Of a stretch of DNA of 64,000 nt, positions 28,652 through 62,870 are shown in pieces. The stretch spans positions 5,433,888 to 5,497,887 of the forward strand of contig NC_092676.1 in assembly GCF_964355755.1 (NCBI RefSeq). Reading direction: 5' to 3'. The position numbers were made by a program, and so were the translations under genes. The stretch comes from Antedon mediterranea (taxonomy: Eukaryota; Animalia; Echinodermata). Within the stretch, counting starts at the first letter, position 1, and the number at the start of each line of letters is the position of its first letter. The notes beneath the pieces were generated by a model. The model made no database searches. It worked only from the letters and a program-made list of their open reading frames with translations, and had not been told where the DNA came from.

Positions 28652-28803
28652 GAAGCTTGATTCTAACTAGGACGTAAACAAAAGGACGGAAGCGCAACGT
28701 AAGAAATCTGACCAATCACAAGCGATAGCTTATTCGTAACAGTCGCTTGTCATTGGTCAACTCGGCATACGATCTTGCGTTGCGTCCTAGTTGGAACCAA
28801 ACT
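28652..28803. mobile_element. Palindromic MITE (AGCTTGGTTC..CTAGGACGCAAC family)
   Basis: Inverted ends ..ACTAGGACG / CGTCCTAGTTGGAACCAA; other copies at about 59080-59220 (inverted) and 61298-61431. Confidence 0.6.
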
Positions 28804-29070
28804 ATATAGTCACCATACTTCACAAAGTTGTTTACTCTCAAAGTTTGATGATATTCAATGTAGAGTAAACGTAACAAGGAAAGTGTTCAAATAATACATT
28901 ATGAAAAGAATGATATAATAGATATAAATATATGCAAACCATGTATTGAGAATACTGTAACTTACAATGATTAAAAAGAAAGTATAGGACCTACAAAATG
29001 AAATGTAGATCTGAGGTTTTAGTAGCAGAATGAAAGTAGAAAACCTAAATGTTGAAATCTGAGTTTTCCA

Positions 29071-29732
29071 GACACACACAGCCTCACTCTGCCTATATCT
29101 AATGAAACTAGACACACCCAGCCTCACTCTACCTATATCTAATGTAACTAGACACACCCAGCCTCACTCCATCTATATCTAATGGAACTAGACACACCCA
29201 TACTCACTCTACCTATATCTAATGGAACTAGACACACCCATACTCACTCTACCTATATCTAATGGAACTAGACACACCCAGCCTCACTCTACCTATATCT
29301 AATGAAACTAGACACACTCAGCCTCACTCTACCTATATCTAATGAAACTAGACACACTCAGCCTCACTCTACCTATATCTAATGAAACTAGACACACTCA
29401 GCCTCACTCTACCTATATCTAATGAAACTAGACACACTCAGCCTCACTCTACCTATATCTAATGGAACTAGACACACCCAGCCTCACTCTACCTATATCT
29501 AATGAAACTAGACACACTAAGCCTCACTTTACCTATATCTAATGAAACTAGACACACTCAGCCTCACTCTACCTATATCTAATGGAACTAGACACACCCA
29601 GCCTCACTCTACCTATATCTAATGGAACTAGACACACCCAGCCTCACTCTACCTATATCTAATGTAACTAGACACACCCAGCCTCACTCTACCTATATCT
29701 AATGTAACTAGACACACCCAGCCTCACTCTAC
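29071..29732. repeat. 40-bp minisatellite upstream of LGR copy 1
   Basis: GACACACCCAGCCTCACTCTACCTATATCTAATGAAACTA, about 16.5 copies, no spacers. Confidence 0.96.
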
Positions 29733-30072
29733 AAATCATGGATGAATTTGGTTGTACAGTATACATCATGACGTCGTAGTCAGTAAAACAGAGTTCAGCT
29801 TATTATTCCATTCAACAATCCTAGTTAACTAGTCCATGTGTTTTATAAATCTTGTGCTTATTACATGAATATTATATAATATCAATATAGTATTAAGTAT
29901 TAACAATTGTATTAATGCATCCGGTGATGTACTTCATCTAAATGTTTAATAATTAAAAGTAATATCTACAGGTAAATGAAGATAGTAACAAAGTGTATTG
30001 TTCGTATACTGAACTAACTCGCAGAAGTAAAGTTTATTAAATTAATTTTTACGAGTGAATTAAGTTAAGAAG

Positions 30073-30361
30073 ATGTTCATCTTAAGAGGAATCATACTAC
30101 TGTTTTATATTGCTATATTGATTGCATTGTTATTTTCTCGGTGTTTTAGTATCAGCTTCACTGACGTTAACGTTACCGATCGTGTCACCGATTCCGTTAT
30201 CGATCATGTTGCCTACCCGGTTACCGAGACCAATCATGTTACCGATCATGATGTGACCGATTCTGATATTGATCCTGTTACCTATATAGTTACCGATACC
30301 AATCCTGTTACGGATCCTGTCACTTTTCCGGTTGTCAAGACCAATCCTGTTACCCTTCCCG
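30073..30361 (+). CDS. LGR exon 1: signal peptide + VTD(H/P) repeat segment
   Basis: MFILRGIILLFYIAILIALLFSRCFS hydrophobic leader; donor G|GTATGA in phase 1 matches exon 2. Confidence 0.78.
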
Positions 30362-33300
30362 GTATGATTGCTTTACTTTTTAAATTTCATTATGAATTTA
30401 TTAATTAAGAATATGCTTATACTATAACTATACAGTATTATCACTAAATTTGATGGACATGTTATATTGATGACGTAGCCTATCTTTGAACCGTAGACGT
30501 TGTACTAAAAAAAAGAACGAAACTAAAGAACTAAAAACATCGAAAGCACTCTCTTGTACACTTTTAAATAACGTTTATTTTTACGTTGACTTTACTGTAA
30601 CTTAATTTGTTAGCCGATTAATTTTTATTGTAATTAATTGGACTTTCACAGCTAGACATGTCTGACTAAAGACTGAAGATTGCATTTGTAACAATAAATA
30701 TTTTTTTAAATGATATTTTCCCCTTTTTCCTTTCATGCCTACAACGGCGCAGATCCATTTTTAATAGTGGGGGCGGGGGAGGGGACGTATACAAAATTAA
30801 ATACTTCGCAATCGATTTCTGAGCACATCAAAATTGTCACGATTTTGTGTCTTTGTCTACGATCTATGTTGTATAATAATACTTTTAGTTTTCGGTTTAA
30901 TTTATGAGCATGTCAATGTGATACATTCTACGTGAAAAAGTCGAGCTAATGTTTTTGATTTGTCCGACCTTGAATGTAAAAAAAATTAGGCCTAATGGTC
31001 GATGAACAAAGTTAACAAACTCATAGAATAATAAATAAAGACGCATACAACATAAGTTCTGGCTTAAAGAGTTTAATTAGTAAATGAACATTCGCCCATG
31101 TAAAACTGCACATAAAGGTCATAAGCAAAGTTTTATAGCAATAATTTTCCAATTCTAAGTAAGCACAACAGGGATGCTCAGAGAAAAGTAGCCCGCGGCA
31201 GGTGCCAAGGCACCGCCAAGAGCAGGCTTGAAAATGTTAGGTATGACAACATACAAGAAGTTCAAGTAAATGGTAACAACTGTATAATACATTGCCTTTA
31301 CAGTACGTTCCACCGTACCGCCGTATTCTGCAATCGCCCAGTTCGCGCTAATGCGGATTGAAGCGGCGCTAATGCGGATCGAAGCGGCACTAAACATGCA
31401 TGCCAAAACACAATACCACAGAGAGATTCAAGGAGCCGCCGCCCGGAAGAATACAATCATTAACAAAGTTTTTAGGCACTGGTCCTTATGGGCCACTGGT
31501 TATATTCACGCAAAATCTATTCTTTTTAGGTATTGTATTTTCTGAAAATAATTTTCAATAATTTAATGATTTTGCTGTTGAAAAGTGAAGGGACAATCCC
31601 CACTAAAAAATATAGGGGAGGGGGTGAGGGTACATCTCCCCTCGTACCCCCAGGATCGGCGCCGGTGCCTTCCTAACGTATCTCCGAATTGTCTTGTTCT
31701 TTACAAAAGCAGAATGTCCAGTCTACTGCCATTGTGAAGTGTTGCCTACTGGTGGTCACAGAGTACGATGTCGTCGTCCATGGAGTATTAATAATATCCC
31801 AACTATCAACAAGTATAATAATCTTGTTCACATAACAGAATTGTAAGTATATGGTTATTGTGAGGCAAACCATCTAACTATAAAATCTACTATATAACTT
31901 TAAAATATGTAATAACTGTTGTACATAATTTTTTTTAGTACCTTTGATTAAAATTCAATACAAATTTGAAATGCCAGATAATAATAATAATTACCACCGA
32001 CCCAGGCCATCCACACCAATCATGATCAAATTTCTGTATTACTATTTGTGCAGCGAGAAAAACAAAACGTAAATGTGAACGCAGGTGTACTCATTTCATA
32101 ATATAGTAACATGCACACAAATGCTAACAGTTATTTTTCAGTCAGTAAGCCTATAAAGTTTTCAACAAGTTCTTAATGAAAAATGTTCAATGTTTACCAA
32201 ACAGCTTGAATATTGTAATTTTACTGTATTGTTTTAATTTGAGAGGATTCGTACAAAAACCGAATAAGTATTTGATAGCAGTTTGACAGTATTAAACCTG
32301 TTGTTCTGCAGTTTAAAATCTGAGAAAAACGACAGAAGAATAGATTCTCTTTCTTGAGCTATACTCGTTCACTTGATTTCTATCCATCCGTTCATCCGGG
32401 TAAACTAAAATACAAACAGAGAAACAATTGACACGACGCAATGAAGCATGTCCCTAACGTATACTATACGGCCTAACATACATAAATCGCCGTTAACATA
32501 GGCATACTATCATCATTATGTATATCAAACATAACTAACTCAAAAATAATTAATAAATACAAATTATAATAATTTCGTTGTTTAATTTGTTTGAAAATAA
32601 ACAATGTTTGGTAATAAAAGTTGACATATCAAACAGCTTGAATATTGTAATTGCTACTGTACATTGTTTTTACTTTGAAGGTATTTGAGCCATAACGAAA
32701 TAAGTACATTGCCAGCCAATGTATTTGATAGATTGACAGCACTGACATACCTGTAAGTATTTAGATCATATTAATTTCTTTGTTTAATTTGGTTTAAAAA
32801 TAAAAATTAAAAATAATGAATATAATAATGTATATTATGCTTTGTATCATTTAATAAAACCACTTATAAGCATTAGTAAAATATTTAATATTAACAAATT
32901 ATGATACCAAATATTTAGAATTTGCTTTAGAAATTATGTCTATGAGAATAACACTTTCTTATTAATATAATTAATTTTTGCCTAATTAAGTATACTCATC
33001 AGCATTCACTATGTAGATAATGTCCCTATCATTGACTGAAATACTATAAAAATAATTTAAAATGTATAAGAAAAAAAAATTGATGTATCGAACATCTTGA
33101 ATATTGTAATTGTTACTGTACATTGATTTTACTTTGAAGGTATTTGGGGGTGGGGGAGTGGGAGGCCGGGAAGGAACAAAATAAGTACATTGGCAGCCAA
33201 TGTATTTGATAGATTGACAGCACTGACAGAACTTTAATTATTTTTGCTCTTTTAATTTGTTTAATTAGTTATTAAAAATAATTAATAAAATAATGTATAA

Positions 33301-36300
33301 TAATAAATATTATACATTGTATCATTGTATAATGTAATCAATACATACAGAGTTTAAAAACCACCTAGCATTAGTAAAATATTCAATCATTAGGCCTATC
33401 AATAAATTATTAAAAAAATATTTAATACTGTTTTTCAGTCATTAAACCTATACAGTTTTCATCTTGAATTTCTTAATGAAAAATGTGAATGTTCAATGTT
33501 TACCAAACAGCTTGAATATTGTAATTTTACTGTATTGTAGTTTTTACTTTGAGGGGATTCGTACAAAAACCGAATAAGTATTTGATAGTAGTTTGACAGT
33601 ATTAAACCTGTTGTTCTGAAGTTTAAAATCTGAAAAAAAAAAACGACAGAAGAATAGATTCTCTTTCTTGAGCTGTACTCGTTCACTTTATTTCTATCCA
33701 TCCGTTCATCCGGTAAACTAAAATTCAAACAGACAGAGAAACAATTGACACGGCGCAATGAAGCATGTCCCTAACGTATACTATACGGCCTAACATACAT
33801 AAATCGCCGTTAACATGGGCATACTATCATCATTATGTCTAACAAACATAACTAACTCAAAAATAATTAATAAATACAAATTATATAATGTAAATACCTG
33901 ATACTAGGGCTCACTTAACAAGATTCTGTCTCCACACGGAGCATTAAAGGTGTACAACAACGTTAATACAACGTATCGCCTATTGTGCACAACTTTCATA
34001 CTATCAACAGTTACTACAAGAAACCGTAAATAGCTTAATTTACATATCAAGGTATCAAGGTGCGATGTACATACATAACACCTGTATCTTGATCATAATA
34101 ATTTCATTATTTAATTTGTTTGAAAATAAACAATGTTTGGTAGTAAAAGTTGACATATCGAACAGCTTGAATATTGTAATTGCTACTGTAAATTGTTTTT
34201 ATTTTGAAGGGATTTGAGCTGGAACCAAATAAGTACATTGCCAGCCAATGTATTTGATAGATTGACAGCACTGACAGAACTGTAAGTATTTAGATCATAT
34301 TAATTTCTTTGTTTAATTTGGTTTAAAAATAAAAATTAAAAATAATGAATATAATAATTGTATATTATGCTTTGTATCATTTAAAACCACTTATTAGCAT
34401 TAGTAAAATATTTAATATTAACAAATTATGATACCAAATATTTAGACTTTGCTTTAGAAATTATGTCTATGAGAATAGGCCTTTCTTATTAATATAATTT
34501 ATTTTTGCCTAATTAAAGTATACTGATCAGCATTTACAATGTAATGTCCCTATCATTGACTGAAATACTATAAAAATAATTTAAAATGTATAGTAGTTTG
34601 ACAGTATTAAACCTGTTGTTCTGAAGTTTAAACGCTGAAAAAACGGCAGAAGAATAGATTCTCTTTCTTGAGCTATACTCGTTCACTTTATTCCTATCCA
34701 TCCGTTCATCCGGTAAACTAAAATACAAACAGAGAAACAATTGAAACGGCACAATGAAGCATGCTATACGGCCTAACATACATAAATCGCCGTTAACATA
34801 GGCATACTATCATCATTATGTCTATGAAACATAACTAACTAAAAAATAATTAATAAATACAAATTATATAATGTAAATACCTGATACTATGGCTCACTTA
34901 TACAAGATTCAGTCTCCACACGGAGCATTAAAGGTGTACAACAACGTTAATACAACGTATCGTCTATTGTGTACAACTTTGATACCATGAACAGTGACTA
35001 CAACAAACCGTAGCCTAAATTACATATCAAGGTATCAATGTGCGATGTACATACATAACACCTTGATCATAATAATTTCATTATTTAATTTGTTTGAAAA
35101 AAAAACAATGTTTGATAGTAAAAGTTGACATATCGAACAGCTTCAATATTGTAATTGCTACTGTACATTGTTTTTACTTTGAAGGGATTTGAGATATAAC
35201 CAAATAAGTACATTGCCAGCCAATGTATTTGATAGATTGACAGCACTGACAAAACTGTAAGTATTTAGATCATATTAATTTCTTTGTTTAATTTGGTTTA
35301 AAACTAAAAATTAAAAATAATGAATATAATAATGTATATTATGCTTTGTATCATTTAATAAAACCACTTATAAGCATTAGTAAAATATTTAATACTAACA
35401 AATTATGATACCAAATATTTAGAATTTTCTTTAGAAATTATGTCAATGAGAATAACACTTTCTTATTAATATAATTTATTTTTGCCTAATTAAAGTATAC
35501 TCATCAGCATTTACAATGTAATGTCCCTATCATTGACTGAAATACTATAAAAATAATTTAAAATGTATAAAAAAAAATAAAAAATGATGTATCGAACATC
35601 TTGAATATTGTAATTGTTACTGTACATTGATTTTACTTTGAAGGTGTTTGGGGGTGGGGGAGTGGGAGGCCGCGAAGGAACAAAATAAGTACATTGGCAG
35701 CCAATGTATTTGATAGATTGACAGCACTGACAGAACTTTAATTATTTTTGCTCTTTTAATTTGTTTAATTAGTTATTAAAAATAATTAATAAAATAATGT
35801 ATAATAATAAATAGTATACATTGTATCATTGTATAATGTAATCAATACATACAGAGTTTAAAAACCACTTAGCATTAGTAAAATATTAAATCATTAGGCC
35901 TATCAATAAATTATTTAACAAATATTTAACACTGTTTTTCAGTCAGTAACCCTATACAGTTTTCATCAATTTCTTAATGAAAAATGTGAATGTTCAATGT
36001 TTACCAAACAGTTTGAATATTGTAATTTTACTTTATTGTAGTTTTTACTTTGAGAGGATTCGTACAAAAACCGAATAAGTATTTGATAGTAGTTTGACAG
36101 TATTAAACCTGTTGTTCTGAAGTTTAAAATCTGAAAAAACGACAGAAGAATAGATTCTCTTTCTTGAGCTATACTCGTTCACTTTATTTCTATCCATCCG
36201 TTCATCCGAGTAAACTAAAATACAAACAGAGAAACAATTGACACGGCGCAATGAAGCATGTCCCTATCGTATACTATACGGCCTAACATACATAAATCGC

Positions 36301-39300
36301 CGTTAACATAGGCATACTATCATCATTATGTCTATCAAACATAACTAACTAAAAAATAATTAATAAATAAAAATTATATATTGTAAATACCTGATACTAG
36401 GGCTCACCTAACAAGATTCTGTCTCCACACTGAGCATTGAAGGTGTACAACAACGTTAATACAACGTATCGCCTATTGTGCACAACTTTCATACCATGAA
36501 CAGTGACTACAACAAACCGTAGCCTAAATTACATACCAAGGTATCAAGGTGCGATGTACATACATAACACCTGTATCTTGATCATAATAATTTCGTTATT
36601 TAATTAGTTGGAAAATAAACAATGTTTGGTAGTAAAAGTTGACATATCGAACAGCTTCAATATTGTAATTGCTACTGTACATTGTTTTTACTTTGAAGGG
36701 ATTTGAGATATAACCAAATAAGTACATTGCCAGCCAATGTATTTGATAGATTGACAGCACTGACAGAACTGTAAGTATTTAGATCATATTAATTTCTTTG
36801 TTTAATTTGGTTTAAAACTTAAAATTAAAAATAATGAATATAATAATGTATATTATGCTTTGTATCATTTAATAAAACCACTTATAAACATTAGTAAAAT
36901 ATTTAATATTAAAAATTATGATACCAAATATTTAGACTTTGCTTTAGAAATTACGTCTATGAGAATAACACTTTCTTATTAATATAATTAATTTTTGCCT
37001 AATTAAGTATACTCATCAGCATTTACTATGTAGATAATGTCCCTATCATTGACTGAAAGACTATAACAAATAATTAAAAATGTATAAGAAAAATAAAAAT
37101 TGATGTTTCGAATATCTTGAATATTGTAATTGTTACTGTACATTGATTTTACTTTGAAGGTATTTGGGGGTGGGGGAGCAGGAGGCCGGGAAGGAACAAA
37201 ATAAGTACATTGGCAGCCAATGTATTTGATAGATTGACAGCACTGACAGAACTTTAATTATTTTTGCTCTTTTAATTTGTTTAATTAGTTATTAAAAATA
37301 ATTAATAAAATAATTTATAATAATAAATATTATACATTGTATCATTGTATAATTTTTTTTTTTTTTTTATTCGGTATATAAAAATATATTACAAAACGAC
37401 AGTCAAGGACTGAAATGAATTGTATTACAAATAAATAAAAATTAGTTAAAATTGCTATAAAAATAGAAACATCTTATTAAAATTAGATACCGTACCATAA
37501 AATTATAAAACATACATGAATAAAAATAATGTAATCAATACATACAGACTTTAAAAACCACTTAGCATTAAAATATTCAATCATTAGGCCTATCAATAAA
37601 TTATTAAAAAAATATTTAATACTGTTTTTCAGTCAGTAAACCTATACATGCAGTTTTCATCAATTTCTTAATGAAAAATTTGAATGTTCAATGTTTACCA
37701 ATCAGCTTGAATATTGTAATTTTACTGTATTGTTGTTTTTACTTTGAGGGAATTCGTACAAAAACCGAATAAGTATTTGATAGTAGTTTGACAGTATTAA
37801 ACCTGTTGTTCTGCAGTTTAAACGCTGAAAAAACGACAGAAGAATAGATTCTCTTTCTTGAGATATACTCGTTCACTTTATTTCTATCCATCCGTTCAAC
37901 CGGTAAACTAAAATACAAACAGACAGAGAAACAATTGACACGACGCAATGAAGCATGTCCCTAACGTATTATACTATACGGCCTAACATACATAAATCGC
38001 CGTTTACATGGCAATAATAACATCATTTTGTCCATCAAACATAACTAACTCAAAAATAAATAAATAAATACAAATTATATAATGTAAATACCTGATACTA
38101 GGGCTCACTTAACAAGATTCTGTTTCCACACGGAGTATTAAAGGTGTACAACAACGTTAATACAACGTGTCGCCTATTGTGCACAACTTTCATACCATGA
38201 ACAGTGACTACAACAAACCGTAAATAGCCTAAATTACATATCAAGGTATCAAGGTGCGATGTACATACATAACACCTGTATCTTGATCATAATAATTTCA
38301 TTATTTAATTTGTTTGAAAATAAACAATGTTTGGTAGTAAAAGTTGACATATCGAACAGCTTGAATATTGTAATTGCTACTGTACATTGAAGGAAGGAAC
38401 AAAATAAGTACATTGGCAGCCAATGTATTTGATAGATTGACAGCACTGACAGAACTTTAATTATTTTTGCTCTTTTTATTTGTTTAATTAGTTATTAAAA
38501 TAATTAATAAAATAATGTATAATAATAAATATTATACATTGTATCTTTGTATAATGTAATCAATACATACAGAGTTTAAAAACCACTTAGCATTAGTAAA
38601 ATATTCAATCATTAGGCCTATCAATAAATTATTACAAAAATATTTAATACTGTTTTTCAGTCAGTAAACCTATAAAGTTTTCATCAATTTCTTAATGAAA
38701 AATTTGAATGTTCAATGTTTACCCAAACAGCTTGAATATTGTAATTTTACTGTATTGTTGTTTTTTACTTTGAGGGGATTCGTACTAAAACCGAATAAGT
38801 ATTTGATAGTAGTTTGACAGTATTAAACCTATTGTTCTGCAGTTTAAACGCTGAAAAAAACGACAGAAGAATATATTCTCTTTCTTGAGCTATACTCGTT
38901 CACTTTATTTCTATCTATCCGTTCATCCGGGTAAACTAAAATACAAACAGAGAAACAATTGACACGACGCAATGAAGCATGTCCCTAACGTATACTATAC
39001 GGCCTAACATACATAAATCGCCGTTAACATAGGCATACTATCATCATTATGTCTATCAAACATAACTAACTCAAAAATAATTAATAAATACAAATTATAT
39101 AATGTAAATACCTGATACTAGGGCTCACTTATATAAGATTCTGTCTCCACACGGAGCATTAAAGGTGTACAACAACGTTAATACAACGTATCGCCTATTG
39201 TGCACAACTTTCATACCATGAACAGAGACTACAACAAACCGTAAATAGCCTAAATTACATATCAAGGTATCAAGGTGCGATGTACATACATAACACCTTG

Positions 39301-42300
39301 ATCATAATAATTTCGTTGCTTAATTTGTTTGAAAATAAATAAAAAAATAATTCATAACTATGTTTGAAGTATTTACAGCATTTAGATAAAAGCTGACCTA
39401 TCAAACTGCTTGAAAATTGTAATTGTTACTGTACATTGTTTTTACTTGGAAGGTATTTGGGTTATAACCGAATAAGTACATTGCCAGCCAATGTATTTGA
39501 TAGATTGACAGCACTGATAACACTGTAAGTATTTAGATCATATTAATTTCTTTGTTTAATTTGGTTTAAAAATAAAAATTAAAAATAATGAATAAAATAA
39601 TGTATATTATGCTTTGTATCATTTAATAAAACCACTTATAAGCATTAGTAAAATATTTAATATTAACAAATTATGATACCAAATATTTAGAATTTTCTTT
39701 AGAAATTATGTCTATGAGAATAGCACTTTCTATTAATATAATTTATTTTTGCCTGATTAAAATATACTGATCAGCATTTACAATGTAATGTCCCTATCAT
39801 TGACTTAAATACTATAAAAATAATTTAAAATGTATAAAAAAAATAAAAATTGATGTATCGAACATCTTGAATATTGTGTACAACTTTGATACCATGAACA
39901 GAGACTACAACAAACTGTAAATAGCCTAAATTACTTACCAAGGTATAAAGGTGCGATGTACATACATAACACCTGGATCTTGATCATAATAATTTTGTTG
40001 TTTAATTTATTTGAAAATAAACAATGTTTGGTAGTAAAAGTTGACATATCGAACAGCTTCAATATTGTAATTGCTACTGTACATTGAAGGAAGGAACACA
40101 ATAAGTACATTGGCAGCCAATGTATTTGATAGATTGACAGCACTGACAGAACTTTAATTATTTTTGCTCTTTTTATTTGTTTAATTAGTTATTAAAATAA
40201 TTAATAAAATAATGTATAATAATAAATATTATACATTGTATCTTTGTATAATGTAATCAATACATACAGAGTTTAAAAACCACTTAGCATTAGTAAAATA
40301 TTCAATCATTAGGCCTATCAATAAATTATTACAAAAATATTTAATACTGTTTTTCAGTCAGTAAACCTATAAAGTTTTCATCAATTTCTTAATGAAAAAT
40401 TTGAATGTTCAATGTTTACCCAAACAGCTTGAATATTGTAATTTTACTGTATTGTTGTTTTTTACTTTGAGGGGATTCGTACTAAAACCGAATAAGTATT
40501 TGATAGTAGTTTGACAGTATTAAACCTATTGTTCTGCAGTTTAAACGCTGAAAAAAACGACAGAAGAATATATTCTCTTTCTTGAGCTATACTCGTTCAC
40601 TTTATTTCTATCTATCCGTTCATCCGGGTAAACTAAAATACAAACAGAGAAACAATTGACACGACGCAATGAAGCATGTCCCTAACGTATACTATACGGC
40701 CTAACATACATAAATCGCCGTTAACATAGGCATACTATCATCATTATGTCTATCAAACATAACTAACTCAAAAATAATTAATAAATACAAATTATATAAT
40801 GTAAATACCTGATACTAGGGCTCACTTATATAAGATTCTGTCTCCACACGGAGCATTAAAGGTGTACAACAACGTTAATACAACGTATCGCCTATTGTGC
40901 ACAACTTTCATACCATGAACAGTGACTACAACAAACCGTAGCCTAAATTACATACCAAGGTATCAAGGTGCGATGTACATACATAACACCTGTATCTTGA
41001 TCATAATAATTTCGTTATTTAATTTGTTTGAAAATAAACAGTGTTTGGTAGTAAAAGTTGACATATCGAACAGCTTCAATATTGTAATTGCTACTGTACA
41101 TTGTTTTTACTTTGAAGGGATTTGAGATATAACCAAATAAGTACATTGGCAGCCAATGTATTTGATAGATTGACAGCACTGACAAAACTGTAAGTATTTT
41201 ACTCATATTAATTTCTTTGTTTAATTTGGCTTAAAAATAAAAATTAAAATAATGAATATAATAATGTATAATATGCTTTGTATCATTTAATAAAACCACT
41301 TATAAGCATTAGTAAAATATTTAATATTAACAAATTATGATACCAAATATTTAGACTTTGCGTTAGAAATTATGTCTATGAGAATAACACTTTCTTATTA
41401 ATATTATTTATATTTGCCTAATTAAAGTATAATCATCAGCATTTACAATGTAATGTCCCTATCATTGACTGAAATACTATAAAATAATTTAAAATGTATA
41501 AAAAAAATAAAAATTGATGTATCGAACATCTTGAATATTGTAATTGTTACTGTACATTGATTTTACTTTGAAGGTATTTGGGGGTGGGGGAGTGGGAGGC
41601 CGGGAAGGAACAAAATAAGTACATTGGCAGCCAATGTATTTGATAGATTGGCAGCACTGACAGAACTTTAATTATTTTTGCTCTTTTAATTTGTTTAATT
41701 AGTTATTAAAAATAATTAATAAAATAATGTATAATAATAAATATTATACATTGTATCATTGTATAATGTAATCAATACATACAGAGTTTAAAAACCACTT
41801 AGCATTAGTAAAATATTAAATCATTAGGCCTATCAATAAATTATTTAAAAAATATTTAATATTGTTTTTCAGTCAGTAAACCTATACAGTTTTCATCAAT
41901 TTCTTAATGAAAAATGTGAATGTTCAATGTTTACCAAACAGCTTGAATATTGTAATTTTACTGTATTGTAGTTTTTACTTTGAGAGGATTCGTACAAAAA
42001 CCGAATAAGTATTTGATAGTAGTTTGACAGTATTAAACCTGTTGTTCTGAAGTTTAAACGCTTAAAAAACGACAGAAGAATAGATTCTCTTTCTTGAGAT
42101 ATACTCGTTCACTTTATTTCTATCCATCCGTTCATCCGGTAAACTAAAATACAAACAGAGAAACAATTGACACGACGCAATGAAGCATGTCCCTATCGTA
42201 TACTATACGGCCTAACATACATAAATCGCCGTTAACTAATTAACAAATTATGATACCAAATATTTAGAATTTTCTTTAGAAATTATGTCAATGAGAATAA

Positions 42301-45300
42301 CACTTTCTATTATTAAAGTATACTGATCAGCATTTACTATAAAAATATTTCAAAATGTATATGAAAAATAAAAGTTTACATATCAAACAGCTTGAATATT
42401 GTAATTGCTACTGTACATTGTTTTTACTTTGAAGGTATTTGAGCGGGAACTACATCCGTACATTGCCAGTCAATGTATTTGATGGATTGACAGCACTGAG
42501 AGAACTGTAAGTATTTAGATCATATTAATTTCTTTGTTTAATTTGGTTTAAAAATAAAAATAAAAATAATGAATAAAATAATGTATAGCACTGTAAGCAT
42601 TTCTTTGTTTAATTAGTTATTAAAAATAAATAATAAAATAATTTATAACAATAAATATTATACATTGTATTATTTTGTAATGTAATCAATACATACAGAT
42701 TTTAAAAACAACTTAGCGTTAGTAAAATATTTATTCATTATCAATACATTCATTTAAATAAAATATTATTACTGTAATTGATAGTTTTTAAAGATATTTA
42801 ATGATAGGCCTAATGGTAATAAATACATAAACATTTTCAAATATATTTTGTCTATAAATATTTCCTAATTAAAGTACTCATCAGTATTTACTATGTAGAT
42901 AATTCATTGACTAAAAGATTATAAAAAAATTCAATAATAATAATATAATATAATCAAGATGATGCTCATTTCTTTCACAAATGCTTTATGGAAATATATT
43001 ATTGTTTATACCTTAACCGTATAATATAAGTTTGTTAATATTATACAGAGGTCTAAATTGTTACTGTTGTACAAAAACAATAGTAGCTTAATTGTTTAAA
43101 GATCCATTATTCATTCATTTGATTTATTGATGGTCAAAAAGAGTAAAATAAAGTATTTGAAATTATTTTCTATTGTTCAAAGTTAAAAATTCACAAACAA
43201 ATATAAAAATGAATTAAATATTATTAATTAGTCTTAATTTAAACAGGTTATAAATTATTATATTACTAAAAATATTAAGATGCACTGCACTCATTGTTAA
43301 AATATGCTATAGAAATTGTGTCTATGAGACTTTCCTATTTTAACATTATAAGTATCATATCAAACAGCTTGAATATTGAAGTTTTACTGTACATGTTTTA
43401 TACTTTGAAGGTTCTTACATGGTAACCAACTAAGTACATTGCCAACCAATGCCTTTAATGGTTTGACATCGTTGACATATCTGTGAGTGTTTTTTTATGT
43501 TTACCATAAAGTTTTTCATAATGTACATCCAGTAGGGTAATCTATACATCTTACAAGATGCCTTTTTTTAGTCGCGTGCAAACGTGACTCTACAACTCAC
43601 TATGTCGGTGGGTCAAATTTGAGTACGTGAAAGCGCCCCGTGGTCAACAATGTTTCTTGGTGTCCCCTTAGGGAAGCCTTTTAGGTTCGTGTTATCTCCA
43701 GTTAGCCTATCATTTCCAAAATTACTGTAAAAATTATATTCATTGTCATTTAGGTAGTTGGTTATGGGATTATAAATACAAAAAAGATACCTTTATTGTC
43801 AAATAATGTGCATCTGTTTATGGGCGATGTATTTGTGTTTGACACTGCTTAAATTTAAAAGCATTTAGGCTTTTAACAATAATTTAAAGTTTATAAAAAA
43901 AAGAAAGTTGGAAGTGACAGTTTGGCTTCTGTAACTATAAATTTAAAATTACCAGGATTTAAACATTTTTAATGGTTTCTGTAAATGTTTAGATATAGAA
44001 ATTTGAACATATTTTATAATTATGTCTAAATGGATCTGGAAATTGCATAATTTAACTTTTGTTTATTTATAAGGTCTATTTTGTAGTTGTCATTTCCATA
44101 TACTTTCAGTACGTCTTATATCTAGTTGGAAGCTGGAATGCTCATTTATTTTGAATGTCAATTATTTTGCAAGTACAATGTATCCATTCATAAAGTGATT
44201 TTGTATTACTAATGGTAGTTATTTATTTTCAATAAAGCTAATATCTAATTTATCTTGTTTGCAGGAATTTAGATAACAACGCTATACATATTGCACTACA
44301 TTGCAATATTGCAATGTAGTGCAATATGTATTAATAAATACAAAAAAATTAATAATGTATATTATGCTTTGTATCATTTAATAAAATCACTTAATATTAA
44401 CAAATTATGATACCAAATATTTAGAATTTTCTTTAGAAATTATGTCTATGAGAATAACACTTTCTTATTAATATAATTTATTTTTGCCTAATTAAAGTAT
44501 ACTCATCAGAATTTACTATGAAAATAATTTCCCTATATCATTGACTGAAATACTATAAAAATAATTCAAAATGTATAAGAAAAACAAAAGCTGACCTATC
44601 AAACTGCTTGAAAATTGTAATTTCTACTGTACATTGTTTTTACTTTGAAGGGATTTGGGCTATAACCAAATAAGTAAATTGTCAGCCAATGCATTTGATG
44701 GATTGACAACAATGATAACCCTGTGTGTATTTTTTCTCGTATGCATTTCTTTGTTTAATTAGTTATTAAAAATAAATACGAAAATAATTTATTATAAAAA
44801 AATAATATTATGCATTGTTTCATTTCATAATATAATCAATACACAGATTTAAAAAAAAACTTAAACTAAAAAATAAAAAAAAATAAAATAAAATATTCAA
44901 TCATTATCAATACATTATTCATTTAAATAAAATATTAATACTGTAATTGATAGTTTTTAAAGTGATTTAATGATTATGTGATTATGTTAATAAATACATT
45001 AACATTTTCAAATATATTTTGTCTATAAATATTTCCTAATTAAAGTACTCATCAGTATTTACTATGTAGATAATTCATTGACTAAAAGATTATAAAATAA
45101 TTCAATAATAATATAATATAATTAAGATGATGCTAATTTTTTTCACAAATGCTTTATGGAAATATATTATTGTTTATACCTTAACCGTATAATATAAGTT
45201 TGTTAATATTATACAGAGGTCTAAATTGTTACTGTTGTACAAAAACAATAGGAGCTTAATTATCGATTATTGATGTTTATACCTTAACCGTATAATATAA

Positions 45301-48300
45301 GTTTGTTAATATTATACAGAGGTCTAAATTGTTACTGTTGTACAAAAACAATAGGAGCTTAATTATCGATTATTGATGTTTATACCTTAACCGTATAATA
45401 TAAGTTTGTTAATATTATACAGAGGTCTAAATTGTTACTGTTGTACAAAAACAAAAGAAGCTTAATTGTTTAAAGATCCATTATTCATTCATTTGATTTA
45501 TTCATGGTCAAAAAGAGTAAAATAAAGTATTTGAAATTATTTTCTATTGTTCAAAGTTAAAAATTCACAAACAAATATAAAAATGAATTAAATATTATTA
45601 ATTAGTCTTAATTTAAACAGGTTATAAATTATTATATTACTAAAAATATTAAGATGCACTGCACTCATTGTTTAAATATGCTATAGAAATTGTGTCTATG
45701 AGACTTTCCTATTTTAACATTATAAGTATCATATCAAACAGCTTGAATATTGAAGTTTTACTGTACATGTTTTATACTTTGAAGGTACTTAGATGGTAAC
45801 CAACTAAGTAAATTGCCAACCAATGCCTTTAATGGTTTGACATCGTTGACAAACCTGTGAGTGTTTTTTTATGTTTACCATAAACTTGTTTATAATGTAG
45901 ATCCAGCAGGTTAATCTATACATTTTACAAGGTGCCTTTTTGTCATCCAGGTATAGGAGGCCTGTTAAGCAAACTCTGTCTGGGCCAAATCGCTTCGGTC
46001 AGACATGATTTTAAAGGCTGGACTAGTTTTGTCTAAATCGGTCAGTCCTGTTTTGGCACCGGATCAACTTTGCGTCTTGCTACACTTCATTCACAACTGT
46101 ACTATTAAGCAGAATATATTTTATTTGAAATACCCGTTTTGGTACTTTTTTAATTATTTGTTGATTGCTACAGTATGTACATGTGGAAACTAATACTTTT
46201 CAATATTTGCAAATATTATCAAATTTGATCATGACAATTTATTTAGATGATAATAATATAAAAAAAACATTAGTTATATAAATACGAATAAAAAAAACCA
46301 TTATTAACATGGATGGGACTAGTTAGAAATAATACAAATGCCTCATTAAATGCAAATATGGAAAATAAAGTTGATATATCTATCAAACAGAATGGATATT
46401 TTAATTCACTTTCTATGCATTTTCTTTGAAGGATATTCCACTGTGAACAATATTATGGCAGTACATGCTTGTAAGTATTTTGTGCATATTTTTATGAATT
46501 GTTCGATAGTATAGTTCAAATAATCAGAATCTGTTTTAGCAATTATGTTTGTCCTGATGTTCACTTAATTTTTTTTGATAGCAAAAATGAAATCACAGGC
46601 AAACCAAACATTAATAAATATTAGTATCTAAACTTCTAAGTTAATTAACAAAAAATTATAATTTGTTTAACTTCATACTGTACATTCTTTTTCAAGTGAA
46701 ACAAATCAAATACGTACATTGGAAGCCAATGCATTTAATGGTTTGAAAGTATTGCAAAAGCTGTGAGTATTTGTTCTTTCAATTTGTATTTACTGGTATA
46801 CACACTTTCATTTCAGAATGTTTGTGAAATAATTTTCCAGATCAAAAATACACTTTTATCATTCATCACCTTGGTGTAGTACTGTAAATCTCAGTTCCCC
46901 AAATATAAAACAGTAAATATTTGTTTTATAACATACATAGGCCTACCTACTACATAGAATATAGTTATATGTTGCTTATTTTGTCTCATAAACCTTGCTT
47001 TATCCATTAACTCAAAGTAACCTACAGTACTTCAGTCATGTCTGTTTATCTTGTGATCTCTGAATTATAAATGTAGTCAAATGGCCAATCTTAGCTGTTT
47101 TATAAATTGCAGTTACCTGTTATATACACACAGCACCAGCAAAGTAACAGGCCTAGAAAACAAACCAAAACAAATTAAAAATAAAAGATCTTTTTTCCTG
47201 GAAGATTTATGAATTCTCAATTATGTTTATGTCCCATAATGATAGTTGAACTATCATCTGCTTTTGACCAATCAGAAGACTTGAATCTTTTAATGTGATA
47301 TATAATAAATAAATAAAATAAACAGAAAATATATTTCTACATTCTTTCCTTCTTCGGAGTGACACAAGGGAAACCAATAGATTGTGATAATTTGATCTTG
47401 AGAATAGTTATTTAAAAAAAAAAATCAATTTTGTAATTTTATAATACTTTCATTGATTTACCTTGAAGGTGGTTGAACGATTTCAAGATAAGTACATTGC
47501 CAACCAATGCCTTTAATGGTTTGACATCGTTGACAGAATTGTGAGTGTTTTTATGTTCATGTTTATACCGTAAAGTTTTCCATAATTTAGATTTCCTTAT
47601 TTTAACATATCAAACAGTTGAATTTTGAATTTTTAATGTGCATGTTTTATACTTTAAAGGCGTTTAGATGGTAACCAACTAAGTACATTGTCAACTAATG
47701 CCTTTAATGGTTTGACATCGTTGACAGAACTGTGAGTGTTTTTTCATGTTTACCATAAAGTTTTTCATAATGCACATCCAGTAGAGTAATCTATACATCT
47801 TACAAGATGCCTTTTTTTAGTCGCGTGCAAACGTGACTCTACAGCTCACTGTGTCAGTGGGTCAAATTTGAGTACGTGAAAGTCTTCATGTCCCCTTAGG
47901 GAGGCCTTTTGGGAGGTTCGTGTTATCTCCAGTTAGCCTATCATTTCCAAAATTACTGTAAAAATTATATTCATTGTCATTTAGGTAGTTGGTTATGGGA
48001 TTATAAATACAAAAAAAAACAATAATTTAAAGTTTATATAAAAAAGAAATATAGTAGTGACAGTTTGGCTTCTGTAACTATAACTTAAAATTTAAATTTA
48101 CCAGGATTTAAACATTGTTAATGGTTTCTGTAAATGTTTAGATATAGAAATTTGAACATATTTTATAATTATGTCTAAATGGATCTGGAAATTGCATAAT
48201 TTAACTTTTGAAGTTTATTTATAAGGTCTATTTTGTAGTGTAATCTCCATATACTTTCAGTACGTCTACTATCTAGTTAGAAGCAGGAATGCTTATTTAT

Positions 48301-51300
48301 TTTGAATGTCAATTATTTTGCAAGTACAATGTATCCATTCATAAAGTGATTTTGTATTACTAACGGTAGTTATTTATTTTCAATAAAGCTAATATCTAAT
48401 TTACCTTTTTTTACAGGAATTTAGATAACAACATTATAACTTCCATAGACCCAGATGCATTTTCTTCTGTTGCTGCATCACTTTCAATTTTGTAAATTAA
48501 CATTATGTCATTTTTGCATGTCTATAACACATACTTAGGCTTTAAAAAATGTTCTTTTGCTGTCATCCGCCCGCCCCCTAATTATCGAAAAAATTAGGGG
48601 CGGACAAAAAAAGAGTTATATTATCGTTGAAGGCACTTACATAAATTAAAAAATACTATATAATATTTTGCACCCAAGCGCCACACTCTGCATCCGCCCG
48701 GCCCTGCCAATACATTGTTAGTATTATTTTTGTTAATAATAACAAATGATAATACAGTACAGTATGTAACAGGAATCGGATTATAAACATTGTCACGATA
48801 TTTCAAATAATCATGTTTGCAGGATTTTTTATTTAATTTGTTTTTTTGATTGCAAAAATATAGTTTATATACTTCATACTGTGCATTCTTTTTCAAGTGA
48901 AACAAATCAAATAAGTACATGGGAAGCCAATGCATTTAATGGTTTGAAAGCATTGCAAAAGCTGTGAGTATTTGGTCTTTCAATTTGTATTTACTGTTAT
49001 ACACACTTTTATTTCTTTATTTCTTTCTTTCTTTCTTTACCCATAAATATAAATTATAAACATTGTAATAATATACAAATAATAATAATTATATCAAGGG
49101 AAGGGCTAAAAAATAGTTAAAACTAATCAAGTTCAGCCCCTAAACATTGAAGTATAAATAGTTATATAAATAAATTAGGGCTACTTGTCTAAAATAAAAT
49201 TAATATACATAAACATTTTTTTTTTTTTAAATACACTTTCTCTCAAATATATACAATATAATTCTCTTATAAAATAAATAAATATCACTATACAAACAAA
49301 TAGTATGTTTTCATTTCTTTTTTGAATTTGCTTTTTGTTAGAAACCTTAAATAATCCGGGATTTCATTCCAGAGCTTTGCACCAGAATACTTGATGGAAT
49401 GTTGTCCTATGTTTGTTCTATATTTTGGTACATACAACTTTTTTCTAGTCTGAGACCTTGATGAATAACGAAAATGAATATACAAAAAATATTTAGGAGT
49501 TGTATCTGGAAATTTACCATGTAAACTATCATGAACAAATAAAGTAATTAAATACTGATGCTGCTGATAAATATTTAAAATTTTAAGTTCTTTGAATAAT
49601 AATGATGTTGGTGCTAGTCTAAGAAATCAGAAGAGTTTACAATATCATTTACATAAATAAGAAACAATGTAGGTCCTAAGACCGACCCTTGTGGTACTCC
49701 ACAAGTTATTGACTTCTCATTAGACTCTATTCCATTTACACTGATACATTGTTTCCTATTATATAAATAATTTTTAAATAAAGCTAATGGCAACCCTCTT
49801 ATCCCATATGCATTTAACTTATCCAGTAGTATTTGATGATTGACTGTATCGAATGCTTTCTTTAGATCTAAAAATATTCCAACAACTATGTTTCCCTTAT
49901 CTAATTTCTCAGACAAATTTTGTACTAACTCAATAATAGCAAGTTTTGTGCTGTACCCTTCTCTAAATCCATACTGTTGATGATATAATAAATCAAATTT
50001 ACTTAAATAACATAAAAGTTGCTTATTTATAATTTTCTCAAATACTTTACTAAATTGTGGCAATACAGATATTGGTCTGTAATTCCCTGGATCTGATGGC
50101 AGACCCTTTTTAAATAATGGAAATACCTTTGCTTTTTTTAAGTCATCAGGGAAGATCCCTGTAGATAATGACAAATTAATTATATACGTAAAAGGTCTAG
50201 ATATATAATCTGCTGCATATATAATTAATTTAGGATTAATTTGGTCCAAGCCTACAGCTTTATTCTTATCTAAACCCTTTAAGATATCATTTACTTCTTC
50301 ATCAACAACATAATTGAAAAATAATGAATTTTGGGGTACAGTTGATAAATATATATTATGATTTACATTTGTGTTATCAATACATTCTTCTGCAAGATTT
50401 TTTGCAATTGAAACAAAATAATCGTTGAAACCATTAATTATTGCTGTTTGATTAGTTTCTATATTAACATTGCCATCACATGATTTAATTTCTAATTTAT
50501 TAGGTAATTTCATTTTCTTCTTACCTCTTCCTAAAATATCATTAATAATTTTCCATATTTTATTTGTATTACCACACTTTTCTTCAAATTGATCTGAGTA
50601 ATATTTCTGTTTTGCTGTTCTTAAGGTGTTTGTAAGACAATTTCGATATCGTTTATACTTTGCTAACATATCTACATTGTAATTAATTTTCATTACCTTT
50701 GAAAATAACCTATGTTTATGTTTAATTGATTTTTTTATACTAGAATTAATCCATGGTTTCTTTAGTTTCTTTCTTAACAGTTAACAGTTTTTAAAACTAA
50801 TGGTGCATGTTTATTACAAACTTCTAGAAATAACCTTTTAAACTCTGTGTAAGCAGAATTTACCTCTTGACTATCAAATACTTCAGACCAATTTACATTC
50901 ATAAGATCATGTTGGAAGTGTTGGATATTAAACTTGGAAAATTTTCTAAATTTGATTTGATCAGTCTGTTGGAAGTAGTCATTAAAGTTCTCTAACATAC
51001 AAAAAGTAGCCAAATGGTCTGATATATCTAATTCTATGGTTCCTGAAGTTAAAAATCTAGAATGTATATTTGTATACACATGATCAATCGTTGTTCTTGA
51101 GCTACTGGTTATTCGTGTATATACATTAATAAGTTGTATAAAGTTTAAGCAAGACAAGCTATTTTTTAGACTTAAAGCATCTGCAGCATTTAAATTACTT
51201 GCATTAATATTAAAATCCCCAATTAATATGCATTCAGTACCTTGTTGTTTAATATTTGCAAGTGACAATTCTAGGCTTTCAATAAATTCCTCAACGTTTG

Positions 51301-54300
51301 TATTTGGTTGCCTATATAAAACTCCAACTATGAGGGATTTATTTTGACCAACATCTATTTCCAGCCATAAAGACTCAGAATGATGTACATTATAATCAAT
51401 AGCCGTATAATTAATTGAATCATGTATGTACGCTCCTACTCCACCTCCTCTTTGATTAATACGACATTTAGTTTCCAACGAAAACTAAATTTCAGAATGT
51501 TTGTGAAATAATTTTCCAGATCAAAAATACACTTTTATCATTCATAACCTTGGTGTAGTACTGTAAATCTCAGTTCTCCAAATATAAAGCAGTCAATATT
51601 TGTTTTATAATAATATACAGATACCTAATACATAGATTATAGTATGTGGCTTATTTTGTCTCATAAAACTTGCTTCATCCATTAACTCAAAGTGATTTAC
51701 AGGTCTTCATCCATGTATGTTTATCATGTGCTCTCTGAATCATAGATAGTCAATGGCCAATCTTGGTTGTGGTACTGGTTGCAGTTACCTTATACATACA
51801 CACAGTACCAGCAAAGTAATGGACCATGAAAATAAAACAAAACAAATTAAAAATACAAGTTCTTTTTCCTGGAAAATTTATGAATTTTCAATTATTCCTA
51901 TGTCCCAGGATTATCATCTGCTTTTGACCAATCAAAAGACTTGAATCTTTGAATGTGATATATAATAAATAAATAAAATAAACAGAAAATATATTTCTAC
52001 TTTCTTTCCTTCTTCAGAGAAACACAGTGGAAACCAACAGATTGTGATAATTTGATCTTGAGAATAGTTATTTAGAAAAAAAATAAAAATTTTGTAATTT
52101 TATAATACTGCCATTGATTTACTTTGAAGGTGGTTGAACGATTCCAAGATAAGTACATTGCCAACCAATGCCTTTAATGGTTTGACATCGTTGACAGAAT
52201 TGTGAGTGTTTTTATGTTCATGTTTATACCGTAAAGTTTTCCATAATTCAGATTTAGCAGTGTTTAGCTAGCTTTTAAAAACACATTGTGTCTATGAGAA
52301 TAACTCATTTTAACATATCAAATTGAATTTTGAATTTTTACTATACGTTTTCTATACTTTGAAGGCGTTTAGATGGTAACCAACTAAGTACATTGCCAAC
52401 CAATGCCTTTAATGGTTTGACATCGTTGACAGAATTGTGAGTGTTTTTATGTTCATGTTTATACCGTAAAGTTTTCCGTAATTCAGATTTAGCAGTGTTT
52501 AGCTAGCTTTTAAAAACACATTGTGTCTATGAGAATAACTCATTTTAACATATCAAATTGAAGTTTGAATTTTTACTATACGTTTTCTATACTTTGAAGG
52601 CGTTTAGATGGTAACCAACTAAGTACATTGCCAACTAATGCCTTTAATGGTTTGACATCATTGACAGAACTGTGAGTGTTTTTTCATGTTTACCATAAAC
52701 TTTTTCATAATGCACATCCAGTAGAGTAATCTATACATCTTTTTACAAGATGCCTTTTTTTAGTCGCGTGCAAACGTGACTCTACAGCTCAATATGTCAG
52801 TGGGTCAAATTTGAGTACGTGAAAGTCTTCATGTCCCATTAGGGAGGCTTTTTGGGAGGTTCGTGTTATCTCCAGTTAGCCTATCATTTCCAAAATTACT
52901 GTAAAAATTATATTCATTGTCAATTAGGTAGTTGGTTATGGGATTATAAATACAAAAAAGATACCTTTATTGTCAAATAATGTGCATCTGTTTATGGGCG
53001 ATGTATTTGTGTTTGACACTGCTTAAATTTAAAAGCATTTAGGCTTTTAACAATAATTTAAAGTTTATATAAAAAAGAAAGTTGGAAGTGACAGTTTGGC
53101 TTCTGTAACTATAACTTAAAATTTAAATTTACCAGGATTTAAACATTGTTAATGGTTTCTGTAAATGTTTAGATATAGAAATTTGAACATATTTTATAAT
53201 TATGTCTAAATGGATCTGGAAATTGCATAATTTAACTTTTGAAGTTTATTTATAAGGTCTATTTTGTAGTGTCATCTCCATATACTTTCAGTACGTCTAC
53301 TATCTAGTTAGAAGCAGGAATGCTTATTTATTTTGAATGTCAATTATTTTGCAAGTACAATGTATCCATTCATAAAGTGAATTTGTATTACTAACGGTAG
53401 TTATTTATTTTCAATAAAGCTAATATCTAATTTATCTTTTTTTACAGGAATTTAGATAACAACGCTATAACTACCATAGACCCAGATACATTTTCTTCTG
53501 TTGCTTCATCACTTTCAATTTTGTAAGTTAACATTATGTCATTTTGCATACTTAGGCTTAAAAAAATGTTCCTTTGCTGTCATCTGGCCTCCCCCTAATT
53601 ATCGAGAAAAAAAAATTAGAGACGGACAAAAAAAGTATTATTTTTTTATTTGAGGGCGCTTAAGCAATAAAATCTTTACTACTATACTTTGACTCCATTG
53701 CAATATTGCAATATAGTGCATGTGTATTTATTAAGAAATGCTAGTGTTAGTGTTAGTTGTTATTAAATATTAAATAATGAAGGAAAGGGTGAAACAAACA
53801 TTGAGTTCTAGAAAAACAGTTGATGAACGGAAAACCACCTTACAGTTAAAAGATGATATTGTTGGCAACTCTGATAATTCTTGTACATTTGTGCTACGTT
53901 AACAATGTAGTTTGAATTTGTTGTTTTTTAGAAAGCTAAGAGGCAACAAGTTACAGGTGTACAGAGATAGAACATTTCAGCAACTCATAGGCTTAAAAGA
54001 ATTGTAAGTAATGATAGATCCCACACAATTTTACATAGCTTAGGTTCAAGACTGTGTTTCGGCTTAATATTAGTAAAAAGAGAAATATTTTGGCTCATAT
54101 AGCATTTCATAGGCATACTAGTTGAGCTTAAAACACCGACTGGTGAGCTAACATAAAAATGACAAGACTACAGACTTTAGACAAGTCTAAATTTTACAGA
54201 TACGTCTGTGTAAAGTATGAATGTGATTTTCTGCAACTCCAGTGATTTATTAACTCATAGGCATTTTGATAATGATGATATAGTTGGAGGTATAATTTTT

Positions 54301-61288: not shown

Positions 61289-61698
61289 TAGATGTTGAAG
61301 CTTGGTTCTCACTAGGACGCAACCAAAAGGACGGAAGGGCAACGTAAGAAATCTGACCAATCACAAACGATAGCTTTTCATTGGTCAACTCGGCATACGA
61401 CCTTGCGTTGCGTCCTAGTTGGGACCAAACTATATAGTCACCATACTTCACAAAGTTGTTTACTCTCAAAGTTTGATGATATTCAATGTAGAGTAAACGT
61501 AACAAGGAAAATGTTCAAATAATACATTATGAAAAGAATGAAATAATAGATATAAATATATGCAAATCCTGTATTGAGAATACTGTAACTTACAATGAAT
61601 AAAAATAAAGTATAAGACCTACAAAATGAAAAGTAGATCTGAGGTTTTAGTAGCAGAATGAAAGTAGAAAACCCAAATGTTGAAATCTGAGTTTTCTA

Positions 61699-62240
61699 GA
61701 CACACCCAGCCTCACTCTACCTATATCTAATGAAACTAGACACACCCAGCCTCACTCTACCTATATCTAATGAAACTAGACACACCCAGCCTCACTCTAC
61801 CTATATCTAATGAAACTAGACACACCCAGCCTCACTCTACCTATATCTAATGAAACTAGACACACCCAGCCTCACTCTACCTATATCTAATGAAACTAGA
61901 CACACCCAGCCTCACTCTACCTATATCTAATGAAACTAGACACACCCAGCCTCACTCTACCTATATCTAATGAAACTAGACACACCCAGCCTCACTCTAC
62001 CTATATCTAATGTAACTAGACACACCCAGCCTCACTCTACCTATATCTAATGGAACTAGACATACCCAGCCTCACTCTACCTATATCTAATGTAACTAGA
62101 CACACCCAGCCTCACTCTACCTATATCTAATTAAACTAGACACACCCAGCCTCACTCTACCTATATCTAATGAAACTAGACACACCCAGCCTCACTCTAC
62201 CTATATCTAATGTAACTAGATACACCCAGCCTCACTCTAC
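61699..62240. repeat. 40-bp minisatellite upstream of LGR copy 2
   Basis: Same unit as 29071-29732, about 13.5 copies. Confidence 0.95.
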
Positions 62241-62581: not shown

Positions 62582-62870
62582 ATGTTCATCTTAAGAGGAA
62601 TCATACTACTGTTTTATATTGCTATATTGATTGCATTGTTATTTTCTCGCTGTTTTAGTATCAGCTTCACTGACGTTAACGTTACCGATCGTGTCACCGA
62701 TTCCGTTATCGATCATGTTGCCTACCCGGTTACCGAGACCAATCATGTTACCGATCATGATATGACCGATTCTGATATTGATCCTGTTACCTATACAGTT
62801 ACCGATACCAATCCTGTTACGGATCCTGTCACTTTTCCGGTTGTCAAGACCAATCCTGTTACCCTTCCCG
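62582..62870 (+). CDS. LGR paralog (copy 2) exon 1; the gene continues beyond the window
   Basis: Three visible substitutions relative to 30073-30361 (V>M, I>T, one silent); same donor. Confidence 0.78.

Follow-up and report, generated by a model that had tools for sequence, protein, structure and literature searches.

We analysed a 64,000-nucleotide (nt) stretch of the genome of the crinoid Antedon mediterranea (contig NC_092676.1, positions 5,433,888 to 5,497,887 of the forward strand; hereafter the window), which holds a predicted gene for a GRL101-like G-protein-coupled receptor (GPCR) with an ectodomain of leucine-rich repeats (LRRs). We consider it probable that the exons of this ectodomain, each encoding one repeat, evolve in concert, while selection keeps six predicted ligand-facing positions of the repeat diverse. 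The one-repeat exons share the same phase and are arranged in tandem units with dead copies and mosaic flanks, and their cores are far more alike than their flanks. Excess replacement divergence is confined to the codons of the six positions, and paralogues with a different core display the same pattern.

Seven exons of one type, A1 to A7, were compared. All are 72-nt AG/GT exons in phase 2 with one LRR each:

32681..32752, plus strand: LRR exon A1 (LRR_8 match; variable codons at 32682-84, 32688-93, 32697-99 and 32745-50)
34210..34281, plus strand: LRR exon A2
35185..35256, plus strand: LRR exon A3
36699..36770, plus strand: LRR exon A4
39453..39524, plus strand: LRR exon A5, a mosaic whose upstream flank and ends resemble E1 and whose core and downstream intron are A-type
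41118..41189, plus strand: LRR exon A6 (codon-11 base common to A6 and the dead B copies)
42435..42506, plus strand: LRR exon A7

A first-pass annotation made from the letters alone had described an identical 45-nt core in A1 to A5. This core was found again without a mismatch at 32700, 34229, 35204, 36718 and 39472, and the ends of the A exons likewise read as given there. A single base of the core is changed in A6, turning Pro into Ala at codon 11, and four are changed in A7; A3, A4 and A6 are nearly alike, with 1–2 nt differences. Between 32.2 and 42.5 kb, the repeat unit consists of one live A exon and two dead exons, B and C. Six dead B copies retain the A core with 1–2 differences, have either a G-rich insert or a 5′ deletion, and have lost their donor:

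33140..33232, plus strand: dead B exon, G-rich insert near codons 3–4, donor GT lost
35644, 37160 and 41574: other dead B copies; 5′-truncated copies have their cores at 38404 and 40101
32246..32300, plus strand: decayed C exon, acceptor altered, internal deletion
33556, 36057, 37751, 38777, 40474 and 41987: other decayed C copies (seven in total)

The six x positions of the motif LxxLxLxxNxL, read across the intron (codons 22 and 23, then 1, 3, 4 and 6), were fixed as a class before counting. Exactly these six codons vary in A1–A6, as the first-pass annotation had proposed, with codon 11 added once; the chance of finding all six x codons among 7 variable codons of 23 is 7e-5. In A1–A6, 12 of the 18 x-codon columns are variable compared with 40 of 341 gap-free columns of the flanking intron (Fisher p 2e-7), none of the 27 columns of the nine remaining exposed codons and one of the 24 framework columns, and no run of 18 contiguous intron columns holds more than 5 variable ones. 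Mean pairwise divergence reaches 28% at x codons versus 6–7% in the flanks. The framework codons L2 and N5, which lie between variable codons, are unchanged in 7 of 7 copies, and the equivalent columns of the dead copies are variable in 2 of 18 cases (2/12 at the 5′ end, from C, and 0/6 at the 3′ end, from B). Without A5, 8 of 18 x columns vary versus 30 of 342 intron columns, and the excess holds with any single copy removed (p ≤ 7e-4). By hand count, A1–A6 need at minimum about 14 replacement steps and 1 silent step. Synonymous differences had been said to be missing from A1–A6; this is right in that no pair uses two codons for the same residue, but the path at codon 3 needs one silent step.

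The array contains introns and dead exon copies of the same age as neutral controls and hence offers an unusually clean test of selection. Calibrated on introns, the dN/dS ratio (omega) at x codons was 9.5–10.5, or 7.8–8.8 without A5 (p ≤ 5e-6 against omega = 1), in fits that share branch lengths with the introns and cover 5 of 105 topologies (best three, median and worst) plus a star tree, or, without A5, 5 of 15 topologies plus a star tree. The expected dN/dS above 1 at x positions was thus recovered, with replacement divergence at about 6–10 times the intron rate both in tree-free counts and by likelihood on all topologies tried. An exon-only omega of 30 for A1–A7 was rejected as a rate, since the exon cores are homogenised beyond their flanks, silent sites included, which deflates exon dS and inflates exon-only dN/dS. 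For the other exposed codons, the exon-only omega is near 0.9 over 15 exons. Diversifying selection on ligand specificity, the conclusion originally drawn from this array, is therefore upheld as far as the x-codon excess over introns reaches, but the ligand specificity itself is presumed.

Downstream of the A exons lie thirteen LRR exons of older types, all in phase 2 (43411..54003, plus strand):

43411, 45785, 47660, 52365 and 52600, plus strand: D-type LRR exons D1 to D5
44651, 46697 and 48898, plus strand: LRR exons E1, G1 and G2
47469, 52130, 48417 and 53448, plus strand: LRR exons F1, F2, H1 and H2
53932, plus strand: last LRR exon

Between D1 and D2, 4 of 18 x columns differ versus 15 of 553 others (p 0.002). 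Across exon families, cores differ at 0–1 of 45 nt and flanks at 22–47%. A4 and the dead B1 exon, for example, differ at 1/45 core positions and by 22–27% in the flanks, D1 and F1 at 1/45 and by 40–47%, with no change at the 15 third positions in either pair. Judged from these alignments, either centre-focused conversion or strong silent constraint appears to act on the exon cores. In a four-gamete test, 24 of 45 informative column pairs were incompatible, which makes recombination among units evident. Conversion that homogenises only the exon centre, named in the first-pass annotation as a possible counter-explanation, is real between exon families and fits the 5′ side of A5 and the D/F contrast, but it fails for A1–A4 and A6, where the flanks differ by 4–6%, and for the short divergent island at codons 22–23. 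We rejected it as the whole explanation, because it predicts flanks more diverged than exon ends and A1–A4 and A6 display the reverse.

The pattern recurs at the protein level in annotated Antedon paralogues of the gene. P0215 (XP_071956026.1), with 62% identity in the seven-transmembrane (7TM) region and a core of its own, has 11 distinct repeats with a mismatch of 0.66 at x versus 0.11 at other exposed positions, and 18 extra residues over the six x positions versus 3 over nine other exposed ones. For P0207, the mismatch is 0.67 versus 0.0 and extra residues number 8 versus 0 (first 4 repeats), and for P0005 we counted 13 extra residues at x and 10 elsewhere over 6 older repeats. These three were chosen by eye from 29 proteins, many of them with truncated annotations. 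When 30 distinct family repeats that share a core type are pooled, the entropy averages 2.4 bits at x and 1.3 bits elsewhere, and the x/other ratio in single-copy GRL101 and LGR5 proteins is 0.9–1.15.

In LRR proteins generally, repeat positions 23, 1, 3 and 4 face the concave surface. In a single-sequence structural model of the P0005 LRR arm (mean predicted local distance difference test score, pLDDT, 69.5), the strand lies on repeat positions 23, 24 and 1, with 3, 4 and 6 after it and 22 before it, 6 and 22 being edge positions. The model matches typical LRR horseshoes, best of all the Nogo receptor (template modelling score, TM, 0.77), and the nearest solved structure by sequence, with the Antedon paralogue P0001 as query, is that of the relaxin receptor RXFP1. 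Variability in the variable lymphocyte receptors (VLRs) of jawless vertebrates is concentrated on the concave surface (PMC3900441).

Might the exon ends differ with no selection at all? Short conversion tracts that use the conserved splice flanks and core as anchors could import older exon ends, a neutral mosaicism that we regard as unlikely. Core homogenisation is indeed real, as D1 versus F1 demonstrates, A5 is visibly a mosaic, changes of several bases within one codon are what micro-conversion typically leaves, and at least 28 close Antedon family sequences are potential donors. Yet such mosaicism, too, expects flanks more diverged than ends, contrary to A1–A4 and A6. It would require tracts no longer than about 12 nt at codons 22–23, a 5-nt island with 46 and 49 identical nt on its two sides in A1–A5, and the in-window donors only nearly match there; several A variants resemble older exon types without an exact match. 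Simulations of neutral import, run with 7 in-window donors, tracts of 10–60 nt, with or without 6-nt anchors and with or without purging of core changes, failed to reproduce the data: the joint pattern arose in 1 of 500 runs in 4 of the 38 settings and in 0 of 500 in the other 34. Moreover, dead copies lack the pattern, and the donor pool itself varies mostly at x positions.

Alternatively, a targeted diversifier, acting in the germ line or somatically, could swap or mutate exon ends with dead exons and paralogues as donors, similar to lamprey VLR assembly. The variable ends are flanked by conserved anchors, B was inactivated by lesions at its variable 5′ end, and with all LRR exons in phase 2, in-frame skipping or swapping would be possible. 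A6 has a base in common with dead B and A5 a codon in common with dead C, although such sharing is also expected under ordinary conversion. Against a diversifier of this kind, the gene is a complete open frame and not an incomplete germline gene, the dead copies are not hypervariable, and the changes mix transitions and transversions over all four bases with no deaminase spectrum, so we think it quite improbable. Deaminase-type hypermutation in particular was discarded as unsupported by the base-change spectrum.

Relaxed constraint, with x codons free to vary and the rest of the repeat under purifying selection, is very improbable: x positions do tolerate change in all LRR proteins, but free sites are expected at the intron rate, which in simulation gives about 2 of 18 variable columns and not the 12 of 18 observed, the other exposed codons, judged by their exon-only omega near 0.9, are not strongly constrained, and the column counts and omega contradict this explanation unless the flanking introns were strongly constrained over 300 nt.

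Several points weigh against our favoured explanation of concerted evolution with selection at x codons. The signal is carried by A1, A2, A5 and A7; with A1 and A5 removed, p rises to 0.09, and with A1, A2 and A5 removed there is no excess. Columns are not independent events and the independent events are few, so the p-values convey more certainty than is warranted. Little x-enrichment is seen in the C-terminal duplicates (H, F, G and D3/D5), the older-repeat controls (GRL101 and LGR5) are near saturation, and 10 of 30 proteins had too few repeats to score. The simulated donors were confined to the window. Finally, some variants resemble older exon types (the ends of A5 are similar to E1, A5 codon 6 to dead C and A1 codon 23 to D1), and part of the x excess may, by this resemblance, be old variation. 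The x variants may be new, or they may be old alleles that conversion has moved among the members of the family and selection has retained. Old alleles kept against homogenisation are as plausible as new mutations, and both require selection.

The receptor gene was modelled on the plus strand at 30073-56242 from splice signals alone, as 23 exons encoding 955 amino acids with no internal stops, in the order signal-like exon, cap exon, 20 LRR exons (all phase 2) and hinge/7TM exon. The exons outside the LRR array, and the one exon seen of a second gene copy, are:

30073..30361, plus strand: predicted exon 1, opening with a hydrophobic, signal-like segment and including a low-complexity stretch rich in Thr, Asp, Val and Pro (ATG at 30073, phase-1 GT donor)
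31713..31842, plus strand: predicted exon 2, a Cys-rich cap at the N-terminal end of the LRR arm, passing from phase 1 to phase 2 (AG/GT, open frame)
55228..56242, plus strand: last exon, Cys-rich hinge and rhodopsin-type 7TM, GRL101-like (7tm_1 E 7e-33, homologues)
62582..62870, plus strand: exon 1 of the second gene copy (289 nt with 3 differences; the LRR exons of this copy would fall beyond the end of the window)

Pfam searches with exon 1 and exon 2 gave no match, and exon 2 is what we take, by its motif, to be the LRR cap. The degenerate LRR exons G1, G2, F1, F2 and E1 may be skipped in the transcript. Best matches of the 7TM exon are GRL101-like proteins with up to 95% identity, and in the model the LRR ectodomain and the Cys hinge are in frame with the 7TM, an order also found in relatives. 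The gene is hence likely an LGR-type rhodopsin GPCR of the GRL101-like kind, with a predicted location at the cell surface. No LDLa-like motif turned up in a six-frame scan of 28000-32700, and tblastn with two LDLa-bearing relatives found no match in the region upstream of the LRR array.

Among 32 matches, the best relatives are 14 Antedon mediterranea GRL101-like clusters with 28 sequences at 61–95% identity, and 5 clusters are from Anneissia. A quick IQ-TREE search on 55 rows, from which one short match and closer paralogues found later were excluded, placed the gene in a crinoid clade (Shimodaira–Hasegawa-like approximate likelihood ratio test, SH-aLRT, 99–100), apart from a group of urchin, hemichordate, snail and insect sequences that includes the Lymnaea row (93). 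With no LDLa detected and a position outside the single-copy bilaterian GRL101 clade, the gene does not appear to be GRL101 proper, a type C2 LGR. Searching with the LRR region of P0001 yielded no close cassette donor among the best 120 of 2115 matches, which were mostly generic LRR proteins. The 5′ region of the second gene copy (61295-64000) lies 32.5 kb downstream and is about 94% identical to 28650-31289; the copy could be either a tandem paralogue or an uncollapsed haplotype.

CCAAT-like and TATA-like words are conserved ahead of both gene copies (28700-28860 and 61340-61490) and are followed by a 40-nt minisatellite (29070-29732 and 61696-62240); the conserved 5′ words could mark a promoter and an untranslated exon. 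Residues 48–56 of the annotated N-terminus of P0001 resemble the translated intron at 32655-32681 just 5′ of the A exons, which suggests that the start of P0001 was mis-called and that the acceptor flank of the A exons has been kept across distant paralogues. Between D2 and G1, at 46432-46470, we noted an open 39-nt mini-exon in phase 2 with good acceptor and donor; it is not LRR-like and might be either a decayed repeat or a genuine insert. The broken-off 5′ part of a third H-type exon lies at 44265-44290, and the D–H block appears to have undergone two or more duplications. The B-exon insert (33146, 35650, 37166 and 41580) has four G runs and is G-quadruplex-like, in a region of about 27% GC. 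It sits at the hypervariable codons 3–4 and traces to one ancestral event, only a hint of breakage there.

The window contains other elements as well. A Mutator-like element of about 9 kb (15249-24162), whose 251-nt inverted ends have 98% identity and are made of a 15-nt tandem unit, encloses a spliced MULE transposase (Pfam MULE at 21359-21868). In the intron after exon G2, a fragment of a long interspersed element with endonuclease and reverse transcriptase open reading frames lies on the minus strand (49288-51484). A Pro/Glu-rich open frame on the minus strand (3195-3674) is probably an exon of a neighbouring opposite-strand gene.

In evolutionary design, the array matches two known systems, one fungal and one algal. 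In the HNWD/NWD allorecognition receptor genes of Podospora anserina (het-d, het-e), repeats evolve in concert within and between genes, dead loci hold intact repeats, and a few interaction-face codons per repeat are under diversifying selection beside conserved framework codons (PMC1805685). These genes encode WD40 propellers of intracellular fungal NACHT proteins, whereas here extracellular LRRs, one per exon, belong to a predicted animal GPCR. The LRR-ROCO genes of Ectocarpus likewise have a 72-nt exon per LRR, dead intronic exon copies, exon shuffling and positive selection at about four concave-face positions (PMC3341825). They encode an intracellular brown-alga GTPase, with another exon register and many dead exons on the opposite strand (PMC3341825), of which a motif scan found none here. 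Concerted evolution and shuffling of units, as in both systems, is evident in the Antedon array from cores versus flanks, mosaic units and incompatible columns. Diversifying selection at predicted binding-face codons, their other hallmark, appears to operate as well, on few independent events.

Lymnaea GRL101 and its orthologues have a related rhodopsin-type 7TM, an LRR ectodomain and a Cys hinge, but are reported to be single-copy, with many LDLa repeats and a proposed IGF-like ligand (PMC8286064, PMC6267866). In the gene described here no LDLa was detected, the LRR exons number up to 20, and the tree places it with crinoid sequences that form an expanded clade of their own. For ambulacrarians, an LGR survey listed one GRL101 per species, with a single gene in crinoids (PMC8286064). 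Jawless-vertebrate VLRs are similar in their 24-residue typical LRR modules and concave-surface variation but arise in somatic cells, where cassettes are joined into an incomplete gene with the help of a deaminase, and they lack a 7TM (PMC3900441); the germline gene as modelled here is complete and open. Human red and green opsins exhibit narrow coding divergence peaks amid homogenised introns, read as selection resisting conversion (PMC3924837), whereas in Antedon the peaks set apart the repeats of a single gene and fall at the same codons in each of them. A supposed expansion of LRR-GPCRs in placozoan immunity was not borne out, the passages on it describing C-type-lectin adhesion GPCRs instead (PMC6321704), and the term 'GPCR' does not occur in the available portion of a 2026 review of immune diversification (PMC13428168). 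Our literature search, with supplements and most subscription papers outside its scope, found no paper that describes this crinoid family or reports such selection on a GPCR ectodomain. The evolutionary design is already known from HNWD and ROCO, and what seems new is its occurrence on a predicted animal GPCR ectodomain.

How could such an array be maintained? Unequal crossing-over would duplicate and remove same-phase one-repeat exons, and conversion, presumably the homogenising force, would hold the cores alike, so that the exons stay exchangeable. Selection, rather than mutational bias, would preserve differing residues on the binding face built by the stacked repeats, where the x residues are predicted to contact ligand. 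Each gene might thus show a distinct surface on a fixed scaffold coupled to G-protein signalling. Such x diversity would not be predicted by a conserved hormone ligand. We hence assume a variable ligand, foreign or social, i.e. microbial, allorecognition-related or chemosensory. By our own estimate a microbial or allorecognition ligand comes close to even odds, a chemosensory or reproductive one has roughly a one-in-three standing, and any other kind is unlikely. In Acanthaster (PMC6267866) and in Charonia (PMC13403566), enrichment of GRL101-like transcripts has been reported for the sensory tentacles. We may further speculate, as a rather unlikely extension, that the crinoid LDLa-less GRL101-like family is a variable recognition repertoire in which exons, dead copies and paralogues exchange variants, possibly with skipping or recombining per cell, and in which the receptor would serve as a VLR-like G-protein sensor.

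Concerted repeats together with binding-face diversification characterise non-self receptors of fungi, algae and plants. In Antedon mediterranea, this immune-receptor-like pattern occurs in a family usually treated as single-copy hormone receptors. It points to an unstudied recognition family in crinoids, the echinoderm class that has received the least study. With at least 28 close sequences in this species, the family is a candidate determinant of immune, allorecognition or chemosensory specificity.

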